A stretch of 64,000 nucleotides of DNA, from positions 18,352,001 through 18,416,000 of the forward strand of contig OX597821.1 of assembly GCA_951406725.2 (NCBI GenBank), read 5' to 3'. Made by a program: the position numbers and the translations under genes. Under the pieces are notes generated by a model. That model saw only the letters and a list, made by a program, of their open reading frames with translations. It was not told the origin of the DNA and did not search any database. This DNA is from Octopus vulgaris (taxonomy: Eukaryota). Below are positions 28,141-58,651 of this stretch, one piece after another (position 1 is the stretch's first letter; each line of letters starts with the position of its first letter).

Positions 28141-28143
<3 letters not shown>

Positions 28144-28557
28144 ATTCTCTAAACGAGATATAGACAGTAACTGCTCCATAGCATAAGGGACATTAGCCAT
28201 TTGAATGTGGCTACGGACAGGGAAGGGCGGTGGGGGTGTTACTGATGCATTTAGCCCCAGGCGATCATCAACGTCACCAGATAGGCTGACACCATCACGG
28301 TGTCCTCTATCCTGCAAAGGGAGATCATTCCCTGAAGAAGCGGATGCCACATACGGACCTAGGTTTCAAGGTATTTGCCTATCATCAATGCATGGCAGTC
28401 ACCGCTCCTCGACGAACAACTCCCTGTGCAGGATATTTATATATAGATTTTCACGTAAATACATTTACTGATTTCGAAAATCTGTTCGACAGCAATAATA
28501 ATTCTCTAAACGAGATATAGACAGTAACTGCTCCATAACATAAGGGACATTAGCCAT
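28141..28557 (-). mobile_element. Retrozyme-like unit (357-bp period, terminal direct repeat, degenerate hammerhead)
   Basis: 57-bp direct repeat at 28144-28200 and 28501-28557; TA tracts on both sides; hammerhead-like motif on the minus strand inside a long imperfect stem. Confidence 0.6.
28345..28397 (-). ncRNA. Degenerate minimal type-I hammerhead ribozyme motif
   Basis: UGCCAUGCA-UUGAUGA-UAGGCAAAUACCUU-GAAA-CCUAGG-UC-CGUAUGUGGCA; palindromic helix III (ACCUAGGU); mismatches at 3/8, at 10.1/11.1 and at the first pair of stem I. Confidence 0.6.
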
Positions 28558-28564
28558 AATTATT

Positions 28565-30055
<1,491 letters not shown>

Positions 30056-30143
30056 TTAAAACAAGTGGATGTATTCCACCGAAACTAGGTAAATAAAACC
30101 ATCGAACAGAGATTGTCGGAAGCGACACCTACTGGCTGGCTAC

Positions 30144-30185
30144 GCTGCATTGAAAAGGGGCAATACCCCGAAACGCGTCTGTAGC
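30144..30185 (+). ncRNA. Minimal type-I hammerhead ribozyme, U3-A8 core variant (copy 1)
   Basis: Stem I GCUGCA/UGUAGC; core UUGAAAA; stem II GGGG-caaua-CCCC; GAAA; palindromic helix III ACGCGU; GUC cleavage triplet. Confidence 0.8.
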
Positions 30186-30504
30186 TGCCGGTCAAGTAGT
30201 GTGGAGCGACTGACCTCCCTTGTTCGAAGGTTATATGGATACAGTTTGTGTATCAAATAGCTAACTTAAGGCGATGGCCTCATGGAGCTAATAAGCGGAC
30301 AGCTTTTTCTTATTTTTATAAGAATGCCATATTAGTATGGCGATAACTATTATTTTCCGGGAACGCTGCCGCTGTTCTCTTTTAGAGAGACTTAGTTATT
30401 TTAATATTTCTATTATTGAAAACAAGTGGATGTATTCCACCGAAACTAGGTAAATAAAACCATCGAACAGAGATTGTCGGAAGCGACACCTACAGGCTGG
30501 CTAC

Positions 30505-30546
30505 GCTGCATTGAAAAGGGGCAATACCCCGAAACGCGTCTGTAGC
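30505..30546 (+). ncRNA. Minimal type-I hammerhead ribozyme, U3-A8 core variant (copy 2)
   Basis: Identical motif 361 bp downstream of copy 1. Confidence 0.8.
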
Positions 30547-30857
30547 TGCCAGTCAAGTAGTGTGGAGCGACTGACCTCCCTTGTTCGAAGGTTATATGGA
30601 TACAGTTTGTGTATCAAATAGCTAACTTAAGGCGATGGCCTCATGGAGCTAATAAGCGGACAGCTTTTTTCTTATTTTTATAAGAATGCCATATTAGTAT
30701 GGCGATAACTATTATTTTCCGGGAACGCTGCCGCTGTTCTCTTTTAGAGAGACTTAGTTATTTTAATATTTCTATTATATATATATATATATATGTATAT
30801 ATATGTATATATATGTATATATATATATATATGTATATATATATGTATGTATATATG

Positions 30858-30892
<35 letters not shown>

Positions 30893-30899
30893 GTATATG

Positions 30900-30944
<45 letters not shown>

Positions 30945-30946
30945 GT

Positions 30947-30998
<52 letters not shown>

Positions 30999-31058
30999 GT
31001 ATGTATATATATGTATATATATGTATGTATATATATATGTATGTATGTATATATATAG

Positions 31059-31125
<67 letters not shown>

Positions 31126-31154
31126 GTATGTATATATATATATATATATGTATG

Positions 31155-31189
<35 letters not shown>

Positions 31190-31270
31190 GTATATACTCT
31201 TTTACTCTTTTACCTGTTTCAGCCATCCGGCTGAGGCCATGCTGGGGCACCGCCCTTGTTGCTACCCTCT

Positions 31271-34200
31271 CTAAGTCCAGTTTGCCGTGGCTGGCCACTG
31301 ATCTAAGAGAGAGTTTGTAGCTGCCGCCCTTAGGTTACCCTCGTACCTTGCAGTGGGTTCATCTGGGATCCCGGAAAGCAGCTTGTCTAGATGTTTTTTG
31401 AAAATGTCCACATCCGCATCATGCAGATCTCTCAGTTTTCTTGGCAGTTTGTTGAAAAGCTGAGGGCCCCTGAACCCCAGGCTATTACAGTATCTGCTCC
31501 TTACCCTGGATGTGGAAGACGGGACCTTTGGCACCACACAGTGACGTCCTGTACGGGGATTGGAACAGCTCTCAATTCCAAAATTTGGTGCTAGTCCCTC
31601 CAGGATTTTCCATATGTATATCACTGCATATCTCTCTCGTCTTCGTTCCAAGGAGTACAAATTGAGTTCCCTAAGCCTCTCCCAGTAGTTCTTTTCTTTC
31701 ATGGTGGAAATCCTCTTGGTGAAATGTCTTTGGATTGTCTCAAGCTCTGTGGTTAGTTTGACACTATGCGGTGACCACAGTTGGGAGCAGTAGTCCAGGC
31801 GGCTTAGGACAAATGTCCTCCATAGTGTCAACATGGTCTCGCAGTCTCTTGTCCGGAATGTCCTCAGGATCCAGCCAGTGAGTCGTCTGCACATTGTCGC
31901 CACCTTCGCGATGTGTGAAGAAAAAGATGCATCGTCACTCATGTCTATCCCCAGGTCCCGTATTGATTTCGATACTGGGATTTCGATCCCTCCTGGACCA
32001 GTATAGTTGTGTTGTAATGTATATGTGTTTACAGCTTGATATTGTAAGGCTTGAAATTTACCAGCATTAAATTGCATGTTGTTGTCTTCAGCCCATTTGT
32101 ATATGGCATCCAGATCTTGTTGTAAAAGGTCAGCATCAGCTGGGTTTTTGATTGCCTGTGCTACCTTTGTGTCATCAGCATAGCTAGTGAGGGATGTTGT
32201 TTGTGCTACCAAGGGCATGTCAGAGAGCGCCACCAAAAACAGCAAGGGTCCCAAGACTGTGCCCTGTGGCACCCCGCTTGCTATTGGTGTCTTTCCCGAG
32301 AGGGCTCCATTGGCTGCAACCATCTGGCTTCTGTCCTTCAGGAAGTCATGTATCCACTCACCTACTTTTCCTGTTATGCCGAGTCTGAGTAATTTGTGAC
32401 ATATCACTCCGTGGTCGACTTTGTCAAAGGCCTTCGCAAAGTCGAGATATACCACATCCACCTGTGAGCGATCCAGTAGTTGTTTCAGTACCCAGTCGTA
32501 GTGTTGTAACAGCTGCGTAAGGCAGCTTCTTCCTGGGCGAAAGCCATGCTGTGTGTCAGTGAGACGGTTAGTTTCTTCGAGGAACGTGATCAGTTTTTTT
32601 CTGATGATTCGTTCCATGACCTTACTTATGTGTGACGTCAGGGAGACTGGCCTGTAGTTTTTGGCCTCTGCTCTACTCCCTCCTTTGTGGATAGGGCATA
32701 TGGTGCCTTCTTTTAGCGCCCTGGGCAGTTTACCGTTAGCCAAGGAACCACTGAAGAGCTTCTTCAGTGGTCCCGCTAGGGCATGCCTGCATGTTTTTAG
32801 GAGGACTGCTGGGAATCCATCTGGTCCAGCAGCTGAGTTTATTCTCATTTCTTCTATGGCAGATATTACATCCCTCTCTGTTATGTCTATGTGGTCGATG
32901 GTTGTTGTTTGGTTTTGGAGTGTTGTGGCATCAAAGAAAACTTCTGGGTTTGTGATTTGCATGTGCCCCAGAGGGGATGTGAACACACTTTTATACTGTT
33001 CCTTTAGTATTTCACTTATCCCTTGGGGGTCCTCAGTTAGAGAGCCCTTTTTATCAAAGAGTGGGCCAATCTTGCAGTGTACCGAGGTGGTTTCTTTCGC
33101 AAATTTAAAGAAGGCTTTAGGGTTTGTTTTAATATTCTCTATGGCCCTGGCTTCTCTCTCTGCCCTCTCCTTCTCATAGGAAAGTTTGAGTGCAGTTTCC
33201 GTTTCAAAAAGTTTCAGGTGGAGTCCCTCATTGTTTCTCTGCCGTGCATTCAGTTGCTTCGAGAGCTTAGCTCTACGCCTCATAAGTATTTTCCTGTCTC
33301 TGGGAATAACGTTCCTATGCCCGCTGGCTTTTTTCTCCGGGACAAACTTATGGCATATGTTCTGTATTGTTGTCATGAAATGTTGGAAATGTGTGTTGGT
33401 GTCTTGTGTGGTGATGAAGTCACTCCAGTCATGTTTTCGGATCTCTTCGTTGATCTTCTTCCAGTTTGCCTTATGGAAGTTTAGACTGGATAGGCCTGTG
33501 GTATTTTCTAATGGCTGCGTCTCAACTAACTCTCTCATACCATATATCATTACCTCTACTAAGTTGTGATCTGAGAGAATTGTTGGTGTTACCATTATGT
33601 TGTGGATGAGCATCGGGTTGCTTGTGAAACAGAGGTCCAAGACATTCTCACCTCTTGTTGGCCAAAGCACTGCTTGCTCCATGAAAAACTTGCGTGTGAG
33701 AGCCAACAAGGACTCTGTCTGTCTCTGTTCAAGTGATGTCATTCCAGGGAGGAGATGGCCATCTGGCCATTTGACTTTCGGAAGGTTAAAATCTCCCAGC
33801 AGTAGAATGGTGTTACCCTGGTCCAGTTTGTCCAGGACTTCTTCTATTCTTCTGAGGCTATCTTCAAACACTCCTTCATGACTAGGGGTGTCTGGTGGCC
33901 GATATGTGACACATATTACTATTTTCGGTTGTTTCATGTGTACTGTCAGTGTGTCACAGACTGAGTTTGAGTGTGTCAACAGTACTATGGGTGTGACATC
34001 TTCACGGACGTACAGGGCAACCCCACCATGAGTTCTTTCCTTCCTGTCCGACCGAAAAACAGTATACTTCGGTATGTGTATTTCTGCATCTGCTATACTG
34101 CTTGACAGGTGCGTTTCAGTCAGCGCTATGCATATTGCATGGTTGCTTGTGCTCAAGTCCCTAAGGTAAGGAATTTTACCCATATTAGATGGTTTCACCA

Positions 34201-34294
34201 GACCTCTGACATTCAGCAGAAGCACTGGTGAGACACCCGGGGTGTCAATAAAGGCTGACGGTGTGGCACCTGGGCCGGCGTCAGCGGTGGCCAC
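31271..34294 (-). CDS. LINE ORF2: APE endonuclease + reverse transcriptase (1007 aa)
   Basis: [24 protein letters not shown] (APE); [48 protein letters not shown] (RT). True start codon uncertain. Confidence 0.93.
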
Positions 34295-35148
34295 TCTGGG
34301 TCCCTTGATTGTGGTGGTCTTGAGTGCTGTTGTGAGTGCCCCTGGCTCTGAAGACGATGTATCCAGGCCAGTTGTCCCACAATTTTCTCTGCCATTTCCA
34401 CAAAATTTTTTTGTTCTGCTGCCGCCGTCTGCATTTCCTCTGCAAATGTGCGCCTTCTCCTTGTTGGGGCATTACGCACTATGTCTGCATATTTCTGGGG
34501 TAGCTTGTATTTGTTCTGGTTTTGGTTAAGGCATTTCGGTCGAGTGGGTTTGATGCAATTTCCATAGGGCCTGGGATGAGCGAACCTGCATCCTTCCCCT
34601 GTTCCTCCATGCCAGCAGGTTCCATTCCGGAAGAATTTGCATGTTATCTGGGTTTTCTTGTCCCCAGTTCCTCTCTGTTTTTTCTTCCTCCGTTGGACGG
34701 TTGTCCACTGGTTCCTTTCTGCATAGGTCTTTTCATCCGGGTGGTTATTTTCTGTTTCCCCATCGCCGCCTATCTGTTGTTTGCCCTGCTTGCCTTCTTC
34801 GACTGTGGCGGTGGGCGTGTCATTTTTTGACACTCTGTGGTTGGTGTTTCCTGTTTCCATCTCTCTCTCTTTGTCTTTGTCCACCTTGAGGACTTGGCTT
34901 AGCAAAGCCATGTGTGGTGCAATGAGAGTGTAGGCCCTTTCGACTTCTCTTTTCTTCCTCTCTACTTGCGCCAACGTCCTCATAAAGCCATGGCTTTTCA
35001 GGGTCGCCGCTATGTTTTTAGTTGGTTGCGATCTGTCGGCCGAGCTCCATCCTCTGATGAAAACTTCCAGCTCTACTTTCGTCCAGTTACGCTGGCTTTT
35101 GTTGACGCCAGTGTTTGCATTCACCTCTAATTTTTGCATGTTGTCCAT
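34213..35148 (-). CDS. LINE ORF1 with N-terminal Myb/SANT-like (trihelix-type) region and CCCH zinc finger
   Basis: MDNMQKL start; RNWTKVELEVFIRGW...IAATLKSHGFMRTLAQVERK; CKFFRNGTCWHGGTGEGCRFAH. Domain names are by motif resemblance only. Confidence 0.75.
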   Translation of the reverse strand: MDNMQKLEVNANTGVNKSQRNWTKVELEVFIRGWSSADRSQPTKNIAATLKSHGFMRTLAQVERKKREVERAYTLIAPHMALLSQVLKVDKDKEREMETGNTNHRVSKNDTPTATVEEGKQGKQQIGGDGETENNHPDEKTYAERNQWTTVQRRKKKQRGTGDKKTQITCKFFRNGTCWHGGTGEGCRFAHPRPYGNCIKPTRPKCLNQNQNKYKLPQKYADIVRNAPTRRRRTFAEEMQTAAAEQKNFVEMAEKIVGQLAWIHRLQSQGHSQQHSRPPQSRDPEWPPLTPAQVPHRQPLLTPRVSHQCFC

Positions 35149-35183
35149 TCCGTTGTAGCGGGGAGAGAGAGAGAAGCTGTATA

Positions 35184-35229
<46 letters not shown>

Positions 35230-35475
35230 CATAAAAAATTGTGAAGCATGACTGTCAACACTACTACATGAACCCGAAGATTGCAGAATTCAATGCATGA
35301 AAGTACTAGTTCAATCAGAATGAATATTTAACATTCTACTATTTCATTTTATTTTATTCAATTATAATATATTATCTTATAATATATCATTATAAGATTG
35401 TAAATAAAACGTGAAAATCAGACAAGGTTGGAATTCTTTTTATTAATATATTCTTCTATACACAATCACACACAC

Positions 35476-35583
<108 letters not shown>

Positions 35584-35791
35584 GTATATATATATATGTA
35601 TATATATATGTATGTATATGTATATATATATATGTATATATATATGTATATGTATATATATATGTATATATATATATGTATATATATATGTATATAATAT
35701 ATATGTATATATATGTATATATATATATGTATATATATATATGTATATGTATATATATGTATATGTATATATATGTATATGTATATATATG

Positions 35792-35823
<32 letters not shown>

Positions 35824-35833
35824 TGTCTATATA

Positions 35834-35888
<55 letters not shown>

Positions 35889-35977
35889 GTCTATATATAT
35901 ATGTATATATATGTATATATATATATATGTCTATATATATATGTATATATATGTATATATATATATATGTCTATATA

Positions 35978-36042
<65 letters not shown>

Positions 36043-36296: not shown

Positions 36297-37582
36297 GGGG
36301 GATGCAGAAATATAGGGGAGCACCAGTGGGAGGGGTGGTTCAGAGGACAGGTACTAGTCAAGTAGAACGTAGGATATCGAGAGAGGGGTAATGCATGGTG
36401 AAATAGCGTATTGAAGAGGGGGTTCAAAGAGTAGACACCTATAATGGTGGTGGGGGGTGCAGAAATATAGGGGAGCACCAGTGGGAGGGGTGGTTCAGGG
36501 GACAGGTTCTAGGCAAGTAGAACGTAGGATATCGAGAGAGGGGTAATGCATGGTGAAATAGCGTATTGAAGAGGGGGGTTCAAAGAGTAGACACCTATAA
36601 TGGTGGTGGGGGGTGCAGAAATATAGGGGAGCACCAGTGGGAGGGTGGGCACCAGTGGGAGGGGGTGGTTCAGAGGACAGGTTCTAGGCAAGTAGAACGT
36701 AGGATATCGAGAGAGGGGTAATGCATGGTGAATAGCGTATTGAAGAGGGGGTTCAAAGAGTAGACACCTATAATGGTGGTAGGGGGGGTGCAGAAATATA
36801 GGGGAGCACCAGTGGGAGGGGTGGTTCAGAGGACAGGTTCTAGGCAAGTAGAACGTAGGATATCGAGAGAGGGGTAATGCATGGTGAAATAGCGTATTGA
36901 AGAGGGGGGTTCAAAGAGTAGACACCTATAATGGTGGTGGGGGGGGGGGGTGCAGAAATATGGGGAGCACCAGTGGGAGGGGTGGTTCAGAGGACAGGTT
37001 CTAGGCAAGTAGAACGTAGGATATCGAGAGAGGGGTAATGCATGGTGAATAGCGTATTGAAGAGGGGGTTCAAAGAGTAGACACCTATAATGGTGGTGGG
37101 GGGTGCAGAAATATAGGGGAGCACCAGTGGGAGGGGTGGTTCAGAGGACAGGTTCTAGGCAAGTAGAACGTAGGATACCGAGAGAGGGGTAATGCATGGT
37201 GAATTAGCGTATTGAAGAGGGGGTTCAAAGAGTAGACACCTATAATGGTGGTGGGGGGGTGCAGAAATATAGGGGGGCACCAGTGGGAGGGTGAGCACCA
37301 GTGGGAGGGGTGGTTCAGAGGACAGGTTCTAGGCAAGTAGAACGTAGGATATCGAGAGAGGGGTAATGCATGGTGAATAGCGTATTGAAGAGGGGGTTCA
37401 AAGAGTAGACACCTATAATGGTGGTGGTGGGGGGTGCAGAAATATAGGGGAGCACCAGTGGGAGGGGTGGTTCAGAGGACAGGTTCTAGGCAAGTAGAAC
37501 GTAGGATATCGAGAGGGGTAATGCATGGTGAAATAGCGTATTGAAGAGGGGTTCAAAGAGTAGACACCTATAATGGTGGTGG
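36297..37582. repeat. G-rich tandem repeat, ~150-175-bp unit x8
   Basis: GCAGAAATA(TA)GGGG recurs at about 36304, 36459, 36615, 36790, 36952, 37105, 37261 and 37436. Confidence 0.95.
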
Positions 37583-37659
37583 GAGAAACGACATCCGGTA
37601 TAGTTGGAGCAAAATAGAGATATCCGGTATTGGTGGTGGGGTGGGTAGGGCGGGCGCGC

Positions 37660-39052
37660 CGCGAAGAATCGTCAGCCAATTTCTATAAGGGAGATAGATC
37701 TTAAATATCTATAACGATAACTAGTGAATTATACAGAATATGCTATAAAAAAACGAGGCGAGGCTGAAATAGTAAACAGAGTGGCGACTAGGGGGATCAG
37801 AATAATAATAATTAATAAATAATAATAATAAATAGAGATACGGATGAATTAAAGTTCAAAGATTTCTTATCTTGAGATCACTTCGTTTACGGACAGACTT
37901 GGCAAAAGGAATTCGGAATCAAGAATGAGGCAGTTTACTAGCTTAAGTATGCATAGCCATGGCGAGTGGTAGGAAAGAGGAGTCCAGACAGACGACAATG
38001 TAAAAAGAGGGGAGAGAAGGGAAGAGAAAAACCCCGCGAAGAATCGTCAGCCAATTTCTATAAGGGAGATAGATCTTAAATATCTATAACGATAACTAGT
38101 GAATTATACAGAATATGCAAAAAACGAGGCGAGGCTGAAATAGTAAACAGAGTGGCGACTAGGGGGATCAGAATAATAATAATTAATAAATAATAATAAT
38201 AAATAGAGATACGGATGAATTAAAGTTCAAAGATTTCTTATCTTGAGATCACTTCGTTTACGGACAGACTTGGCAAAAGGAATTCGGAATCAAGAATGAG
38301 GCAGTTTACTAGCTTAAGTATGCATAGCCATGGCGAGTGGTAGGAAGAGAGGAGTCCAGACAGACGACAATGTAAAAGAGGGGGAGAGAAGGGAAGAGAA
38401 AAACCCCGCGAAGAATCGTCAGCCAATTTCTATAAGGAGATAGATCTTAAATATCTATAACGATAACTAGTGAATTATACAGAATATGCAAAAAACGAGG
38501 CGAGGCTGAAATAGTAAACAGAGTGGCGACTAGGGGGATCAGAATAATAATAATTAATAAATAATAATAATAAATAGAGATACGGATGAATTAAAGTTCA
38601 AAGATTTCTTATCTTGAGATCACTTCGTTTACGGACAGACTTGGCAAAAGGAATTCGGAATCAAGAATGAGGCAGTTTACTAGCTTAAGTATGCATAGCC
38701 ATGGCGAGTGGTAGGAAGAGAGGAGTCCAGACAGACGACAATGTAAAAAGAGGGAGAAGAGGAAGAGAAAAACCCCGCGAAGAATCGTCAGCCAATTTCT
38801 ATAAGGGAGATAGATCTTAAATATCTATAACGATAACTAGTGAATTATACAGAATATGCAAAAAACGAGGCGAGGCTGAAATAGTAAACAGAGTGGCGAC
38901 TAATCAGAATAATAATAATTAATAAATAATAATAATAAATAGAGATACGGATGAATTAAAGTTCAAAGATTTCTTATCTTGAGATCACTTCGTTTACGGA
39001 CAGACTTGGCAAAATGAATTCGGAATCAAGAATGAGGCAGTTTACTAGCTTG
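37660..39052. repeat. Tandem repeat, ~372-bp unit x3.7
   Basis: CGCGAAGAATCGTCAGCCAAT recurs at about 37660, 38035, 38407 and 38776; units nearly identical. Confidence 0.95.
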
Positions 39053-41497: not shown

Positions 41498-42039
41498 TCA
41501 ATATATATATTATATATATATATATTGTATAATTCTCTGAAATATATATATATATTTCTACAAATATATGTATATATTATGAATATATATACATATATTA
41601 CATATTATTCTATATTATATCTGTATAATGTCCTCATATATATATTATGTTTATAATATTATATATTATATATATATATTTATATTATATATTATATATA
41701 CTTCTATGTGAATATTATATAATATGGTATACTTGCTATATAGATAACATTATATGCATTATTGAATTAATATATTTAAGTTACTCTGATATCCTGTTCT
41801 ACTTCAGATTGAAAATATTTGTATTATATTCTATCTTTGTAATGTATATATATGTATTGATATCCTGTTCTTGCTTTTCCTCTATATTTATATATTTTGC
41901 ATCTGCATATTATGCAATTATTATGCATAAATTAATAAATACATATTGACTATATAGTCAGCTAGAGTGAGAGCCTATCACATATATACATATATATATA
42001 TATATGATATATATATGACATATATATATATATATATAC

Positions 42040-42074
<35 letters not shown>

Positions 42075-42141
42075 CATATATATATACAATATATATATAT
42101 AATATATATACATATATATATATACATATATATATATATAC

Positions 42142-42260
<119 letters not shown>

Positions 42261-42529
42261 CATATATATACATATACATATATATACATATACATATATA
42301 TACATATACATATATATATATACATATATATATATATACATATATATACATATATATATACATATATATATATACATATATATATACATATATATATATA
42401 TATACATATATATATACATATATATATATACATATATATATACATATATATATATACATATATATATATATACATATATATATATACATATATATATATA
42501 CATATATATATATACATATATATATATAC

Positions 42530-42601
<72 letters not shown>

Positions 42602-42825
42602 GTATAGAGATATATATATATAATATAAAAGAATATATATATTGTCTGATATATTCATATATTATACAATCTTATAATGATATATATATAAGATATATAT
42701 TATAATATATATAAAATAAAATGAAATATATATATGTTATAATATATATATCTGATATATACTAGTATATATATATATATATTATCTTTATATATGTAGT
42801 ATATATATATCATGCTTCACCTATA

Positions 42826-42893
<68 letters not shown>

Positions 42894-42898
42894 CAACA

Positions 42899-58512: not shown

Positions 58513-58517
<5 letters not shown>

Positions 58518-58548
58518 GATGAACGGGAACGTGAAACTCCGAGTAACA
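58513..58548 (+). ncRNA. Degenerate minimal hammerhead in a short TA-flanked fragment (58513-58652)
   Basis: UGU-CCGAUGA-ACG ggaa CGU-GAAA-CUCCGAG-UA-ACA; single U4C core change. Confidence 0.6.
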
Positions 58549-58651
58549 GCTTTTGTTACATTTCTGCTGCTTTTAAATAAAGCATATTACTCTACCTCTG
58601 GTATTTGAGTACTCTTTTTCCACCTTGTTTCACATTTATGTGATTACTCCA

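Follow-up and report, generated by a model that had tools for sequence, protein, structure and literature searches.

The closest described systems to the repeat reported here are the metazoan non-LTR retrozymes of Cervera and de la Pena (2020; PMC7229834), which include 350–390-bp units in mussel and axolotl Rtz_353 with its hammerhead HHR_Amex2. Like these, the 357-bp unit at 28141–28557 of the window (the whole stretch of 64,000 nucleotides of Octopus vulgaris DNA that was analysed) belongs to the non-coding, 150–450-bp, <50% G+C size and composition class (357 bp, G+C content 45.4%), is present in many copies, is arranged head-to-tail and has a type I hammerhead with a short helix III; with HHR_Amex2 it shares a U·U at the base of helix II and a 2-bp helix III. 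Unlike these retrozymes, the locus contains 1.17 units with a single ribozyme, its core carries U3·G8 and an A·C at the base of helix I, and it is inserted in (TA)n with no visible target duplication.

Penelope derivatives described by Li, Clavereau and Pollet (2026; bioRxiv 10.64898/2026.07.22.740005), from a sample of 31 vertebrates and 4 invertebrates (3 insects and 1 anthozoan), include hammerhead repeats of a monomer class coexisting with Penelope-like elements, as here, and these authors propose mobilisation in trans by such elements. With its one ribozyme, the locus would not count as an active retrozyme by their criterion, which requires two units that both have a complete hammerhead, and, unlike their derivatives, the 357-bp unit has no homology to the one Penelope tail with which it was compared. 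Hydra-clade Penelope-like elements (Craig et al. 2021; PMC8557442) resemble the unit in (TA)n target, possession of a 3′ hammerhead and, in many cases, U·U at helix II, and partial tandems and inverted 5′ pieces, described in the same source for the wider Penelope-like group, are both found at this locus. However, Hydra-clade elements encode a reverse transcriptase (RT) and GIY-YIG domain and their tabulated hammerheads all have C3, whereas the 357-bp unit is non-coding and has U3. Plant LTR retrozymes are, like the 357-bp unit, non-coding and hammerhead-bearing with a proposed circular intermediate, but their other features (type III hammerheads within LTRs, 4-bp target duplications, length of 1–1.5 kb) do not fit, and identity with them was rejected, as the 357-bp unit has one type I motif, outside the terminal repeat. 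The unit was not filed as an active retrozyme because two features, a pair of complete ribozymes and a canonical core, are missing.

No description of a cephalopod retrozyme was found in the literature. A paper on the giant squid genome reports 235 hammerhead matches, a hammerhead-bearing Hydra element from an octopus is tabulated by Craig et al. (PMC8557442), and ribozymes are absent from the main text of a 2026 octopus repeat annotation (further works cited: PMC6155905, PMC6962438, PMC13282606, PMC5680766, PMC8490949). The 357-bp repeat is probably a new family of a described kind, which supplements to PMC7229834 or the preprint, or repeat libraries, may already include. The reading that we favour, with a probability of roughly 0.6, is that it is a non-autonomous, Penelope-dependent retroelement of the animal retrozyme type, with a weak or dead hammerhead.

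The feature originally noticed at 28141–28557 is real (Table 1). It has a period of 357 bp and consists of one unit plus a partial repeat; the terminal redundancy, first given as 57 bp, measures 60 bp with 59 matches, or 63 bp with 62 matches (BLAST) if ATA (28138–28140) of the TA tract is included, and the TA flanks that had been described are present on both sides. The longest Met-started frame is 88 codons on the plus and 33 on the minus strand, a Pol III B box is absent from both strands, and there is no second copy of the unit within the 64-kb window. The left flank is a 5′-truncated LINE, 72% like an intact LINE at 31271–34471 (minus strand) that has an uninterrupted 1066-codon frame with endonuclease and reverse transcriptase domains. 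Beyond the right-hand end of the unit the missing 5′ part of this LINE is not found, so that no split target site can be read.

Table 1 Features of the 357-bp repeat locus and its predicted hammerhead (coordinates within the window).
Feature	Coordinates	Strand	Basis or remark
TA tract, 3′ end of element in RNA sense; inferred target site	28093–28140	.	minus strand reads ...ATTAT into tract
Full 357-nt unit, phased to 3′ insertion end	28138–28494	-	G+C 45.4%, without long ORF
Terminal repeat, 3′ copy	28141–28200	-	59/60 identical to 28498–28557
Predicted rod, 131 nt, extending hammerhead helix I	28307–28437	-	z −5.45, 76% paired
Predicted type I hammerhead fold; helix I with 2-nt UG bulge and A·C mismatch at base (28389/28355)	28345–28397	-	
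GAAA, 2-bp helix III inside 8-nt palindrome, UC	28356–28367	-	
Helix II: U·U at base, 3 pairs, loop CAAAUA	28368–28381	-	
Core 5′ half UUGAUGA, U3 facing G8	28382–28388	-	
Terminal repeat, 5′ copy; partial upstream unit, comparable to a Penelope pseudo-LTR	28498–28557	-	repeat comparison
10-nt inverted copy of element 3′ terminus, at 5′ junction	28558–28567	+	shuffles of 12-nt filler
TA tract, 5′ side of element	28570–30056	.	

A neighbouring element at 30057–30778 (plus strand) is an exact dimer whose 361/362-bp units each carry a U3-A8 type I hammerhead; of the two elements it is the better candidate for an active retrozyme. A second locus of this 361-bp family is part of a 6-kb inverted duplication (30095–36040 and 42018–47932; 96%) ending at an N gap, and does not represent an independent insertion; the duplication may be an assembly artefact. 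The two units had been called unrelated in sequence, which applies outside the ribozyme but not within it: their best local alignment is the ribozyme (30 columns; score reached by 18/500 shuffles). Sequence comparison supports a 357-bp family distinct from the 361-bp family. Further along the window, 155-bp and 371-bp units form adjacent tandem arrays (36297–37583 and 37659–39051) that end in a TA tract and contain no hammerhead recognised by a type I descriptor.

Likeness of loop II between the 357-bp and 361-bp units was rejected as proof of kinship, this layout being generic: a pattern scan for the shared ribozyme layout found 22 loci in metagenome contigs, nine of them with full hammerhead stems, the same loop II and C3, and one locus, lacking stems, in viral contigs. 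None of the 22 metagenome loci is similar to the 357-bp unit (BLAST). Metagenome contig L014 carries a 580-bp tandem dimer with a canonical type I hammerhead per unit, and L007 (901–927) a hammerhead-like motif whose stems are complete but in which C3 and A8 are mismatched.

Words of the 357-bp unit are present in 20 of 24 public sequencing runs listed, of which four were used (X1 and X3, organism label A; X7, label B; X15, label D), the other 16 word-positive runs, including both of organism label C, being left out of the counts. Contigs were placed on one monomer (28201–28557) at 80% likeness, giving 918 variant contigs in X3, 598 in X7 and 219 in X15, which range from >99% to <90% likeness to the unit. 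It is therefore a multi-copy family common to at least three related organisms (labels A, B and D), and the best-matching DNA run may be the window's own sample. Summed depth in these three runs, which does not measure copy number, drops steeply over 28369–28452. Run X1, considered RNA by guess only, yielded 13 matching contigs. One of these (364 nt, 5 other letters) spans a complete turn, head-to-tail joint included, and a further 7 nt; a 359-nt contig and a 61-nt bubble contig close a diverged 360-nt turn, in which 132 bases (28288–28419, the whole ribozyme rod) are swapped for 134 other letters.

The joint from 28557 to 28201 is crossed by contigs of both X1 and X7, and the latter place it in DNA; together with the 60-bp partial tandem at the locus, these contigs establish head-to-tail arrangement. 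Full-turn contigs prove neither circles nor long tandems, since 31 bases of redundancy suffice to generate them in a de Bruijn graph, and short contigs cannot show RNA ends, strand or circles, nor make arrays elsewhere visible.

On the minus strand, UUGAUGA (28388–28382) and GAAACCUAGGUC (28367–28356), both named in the original prediction, are present, as are the nested stems (28397–28393/28349–28345, 28410–28402/28343–28334 and 28435–28420/28323–28308). As in type I hammerheads, helix I is the open arm of the three-helix junction, and GAAA and UH both occupy their expected positions; the UG bulge of helix I sits in its 3′ strand, and cleavage is predicted between 28356 and 28355. The core is not canonical, with U3·G8 and A2.1·C1.1 instead of a Watson-Crick 3-8 pair and paired 1.1-2.1. 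The rod-like form proposed for the unit holds for 28437–28307, but not for the 3′ part (z −1.04) or the 5′ part (z 0.0). None of 200 shuffles folds as well as segment 28290–28450 and, folded as a circle, the whole unit has z −3.9, versus −7.2 for the 361-bp neighbour. Folding as a hammerhead is 7.5 kcal/mol less favourable than the free fold.

Rfam gave nothing at gathering score across the window, only TA-repeat and weak chance matches (E ≤10), with no hammerhead match for the 357-bp unit even at E 10 and none in the first unit of the 361-bp neighbour. A tolerant type I descriptor, loosened after the sequence had been seen, matches 3/5000 dinucleotide shuffles of the unit and, within the 64-kb window, only the 357-bp unit, four neighbour units and one other site.

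This copy's core had been said to carry mismatches and perhaps to be dead. It departs from the consensus at three places, U3·G8, A2.1·C1.1 and the U·U at the foot of helix II. The U·U is known from natural hammerheads, being best tolerated among mismatches at 10.1-11.1 (PMC3088659) and found also in axolotl HHR_Amex2 (PMC7229834) and, counted by eye, in 14/25 tabulated Hydra-clade hammerheads (PMC8557442). U3·G8 and A2.1·C1.1 are not natural-type departures of this sort, because the natural change reported at the 3-8 pair is U3-A8 (PMC3088659, PMC4209133) and because single and double core mutants were all of low activity, except for the C3/G8 swap, in one mutational scan (PMC9901934). In published U3-A8 variants (Perreault 2011, PMC3088659; Cervera and de la Pena 2014, PMC4209133) U3 is as in the 357-bp unit but the pair is restored by A8, likewise in the 361-bp neighbour, whereas the 357-bp unit retains G8. 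Perreault et al. dropped hits mispaired next to the core (PMC3088659), and no report of a C3-G8 wobble mutant was found in the literature. The hammerhead of the 357-bp unit is predicted to cleave weakly or not at all.

Variants were called at the 5% level among contigs at least 80% alike in the four runs. No changes at 28388 (position 3), 28389 (2.1) or 28355 (1.1) were seen in any of these runs, and those within 28345–28397 affect N7 (28384; variable in two of four runs), loop II (a 1-nt insertion in some contigs), loop III and the outer end of helix I. The idea that a consensus would restore CUGAUGA found no variant in its favour among these contigs, and stem covariation, also anticipated, did not appear: the six substitutions in the rod (three unpaired, one keeping its pair, two breaking pairs) include no double compensatory change, diverged variants being unreadable here. 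Defects in the core had been attributed to this copy; they exist but, as U3 and A·C are both kept in all four runs, are a trait of a subfamily rather than of a single copy. Weakness in this subfamily may not extend family-wide, since the core of the diverged 360-nt variant is not visible. Selection on the hammerhead core was rejected as evidence (0/12 core positions variable, with five variable sites among 53; P 0.26), and A-to-I editing at the A·C mismatch is unsupported, there being no such change in X1, whose nature as RNA is guessed.

The first alternative retains the same element and mobilisation, but with a ribozyme that works as a dimer, two copies in a tandem transcript pairing via the palindromic helix III and cleaving, and the monomer being ligated into a template circle. 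We regard this as possible, if unlikely. The 8-nt palindrome self-pairs (−11.4 kcal/mol) and, in the doubled unit, a double-hammerhead fold is 3.8 kcal/mol better than two single folds, although both constrained dimer folds lie 11–15 kcal/mol above the free fold. Retention of U3 and A·C in four runs in which N7, loop II and loop III vary would suit a functional core, but this conservation is not significant. Axolotl retrozymes with weak helices cleave as dimers and form circles (PMC7229834), while 8/9 predicted Xenopus retrozyme dimers were uncleaved in vitro (bioRxiv 10.64898/2026.07.22.740005). U3 is found in the 361-bp neighbour too, with A8, and the natural variants cited in the literature include a U3·G8 sequence that has a 2-nt insertion (PMC7151607). 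Against this stand two defects beside the core simultaneously, the low activity of even single core mutants (PMC9901934), and C3 in 9/9 full-stem metagenome loci with the same loop II (of 22) and in all 25 tabulated Hydra-clade families (PMC8557442).

Read on the minus strand, the 357-bp element passes into the TA tract after ...ATTAT, a point at which the unit's own sequence continues with TG, and the 361-bp neighbour ends likewise at ATTAT|TG in a TA tract, this terminus being short and AT-rich. The 3′ end lies 218 nt from the cleavage site in the 357-bp unit and 238 nt in the 361-bp neighbour. The terminal 9-mer of the inverted 5′ piece is found in 622/200000 shuffles of the 12-nt filler (a post hoc comparison). 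Penelope-like elements are known for partial tandems, inverted 5′ pieces and microsatellite targets (PMC8557442) and, by analogy, the ends seen at this one locus (TA target, partial tandem, inverted 5′ piece, ATTAT|TG) suggest a Penelope-like insertion. LINE tails in the window also adjoin TA tracts, and Naiads also abut them (PMC8557442).

A broken, 5′-truncated Penelope-like remnant with RT motifs lies 21 kb from the 357-bp unit (49670–53577, plus strand). Its linker is of the CxCX5C type, GIY-YIG is at the C-terminus, the hammerhead (53465–53534) combines a canonical core with a long helix II, and the element ends TTTAT in a TA tract; its 3′ region, of about 2.3 kb, is unusually long. Three Penelope fragments gave no Pfam match and a search found no longer relatives, and it was assigned to the Hydra clade, almost all of which is TA-targeting (PMC8557442), on the basis of its motifs, Atlas clusters named GIY-YIG and by-eye comparison with a published supplement. 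The 357-bp unit is not similar to the 3′ end of this remnant, the only one compared (score reached by 94/500 shuffles), and since the two share no sequence the putative helper is inferred from target and ends alone. Between TA tracts at 58514–58650 (plus strand) is a short piece with a hammerhead-like CCGATGA...GAAAC, which by eye resembles tabulated Hydra-clade motifs (PMC8557442).

A second alternative, which we consider improbable, is that the unit lacks a life cycle of its own and is the mere tail (pseudo-LTR) of an autonomous Penelope-like element, left as a 5′-truncated partial tandem. Penelope-like insertions are mostly 5′-truncated partial tandems with a 3′ hammerhead and TA preference (PMC8557442), and Xenopus retrozymes resemble pseudo-LTRs (bioRxiv 10.64898/2026.07.22.740005). 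However, the 357-bp unit's own 5′ start follows directly after its 3′ end with no coding sequence between, X1 contains two unbroken full-turn cycles (357 and 360 nt), and at most 1/100 contigs in X3, X7 and X15 run on into unlike sequence. The bulged helix I and CAAAUA loop are also unlike the minimal metazoan Penelope motifs (PMC4209133).

It is more improbable still that the repeat is a minisatellite spread at the DNA level by unequal crossover or slippage, with the 60-bp repeat a local duplication and the hammerhead a fossil. Local tandem amplification after pseudo-LTR seeding is proposed by Li et al. (bioRxiv 10.64898/2026.07.22.740005) and the window has other long-period tandems, but a lone 1.17-unit copy in a TA tract with an inverted terminal piece better fits a new insertion. 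That the hammerhead likeness is due to chance is scarcely credible: lack of an Rfam match and post hoc loosening of the descriptor would allow it, but Rfam misses even the well-formed motif of the 361-bp neighbour, so few shuffles and sites in the window match the descriptor, and loop II is common to canonical hammerheads.

The unit had been proposed as a second retrozyme family, which stands insofar as it is multi-copy, non-coding, head-to-tail, of hammerhead topology and distinct from the 361-bp family, but not with regard to a canonical core. The partial repeat, taken to be the mark of a circular RNA, loses that meaning: Penelope-like elements routinely make partial tandems, and a monomer plus partial repeat is therefore not specific to circles. 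The geometry does call for a template longer than one unit, and with a cleavage site that is intact, internal and 218 nt from the 3′ end, a linear monomer produced by cleavage is excluded as template.

For a Penelope-dependent retroelement with a weak or dead hammerhead, the template would be a transcript exceeding unit length, with about even odds for an RNA circle and for a tandem read-through RNA. A (TA)n tract would be nicked by the endonuclease/reverse transcriptase of a TA-targeting Penelope-like element, the Hydra clade being the most plausible source, and priming would occur at the AU-rich ATTAT|TG, downstream of the cleavage site, through TAT microhomology. Copying would then pass through the intact ribozyme and the junction and stop 60 nt into a second round (1.17 turns); one copy, that at the locus, contains the intact ribozyme, the junction and 60 nt of a second unit. 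The 10-nt inverted piece would result from second-strand priming at this same site. With U3·G8, A2.1·C1.1 and a 2-bp helix III, the ribozyme of this subfamily would be slow or dead, and the subfamily would spread either through occasional dimer-assisted cleavage or with none; a working core may survive in other subfamilies.

A bolder version, which we hold only tentatively and think quite unlikely, is that a radiation of U3 retrozymes (U3·G8 in the 357-bp unit, U3-A8 in its neighbour) rides on TA-targeting Hydra-clade Penelope enzymes, with priming at a fixed internal ATTAT|TG on an RNA circle and U3·G8/A·C kept as a ribozyme that is closed within the circle and active only as a dimer or with help from the host. 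If true, this would identify both the enzyme that helps an animal retrozyme to move and the site at which it primes, and U3·G8/A·C would add a natural variant of the hammerhead core. If the core has merely decayed, the 357-bp repeat is one more family of a described kind.

By analogy, the 357-bp repeat fits the view of metazoan retrozymes as non-autonomous derivatives of Penelope-like elements. The literature leaves open both the enzyme responsible for mobilising animal retrozymes and the need for hammerhead cleavage in their spread (PMC7229834, PMC8557442, bioRxiv 10.64898/2026.07.22.740005). This locus could let both questions be addressed, because two families with the same 3′ end lie near a TA-targeting Penelope remnant and one of them has spread with a crippled-looking core.
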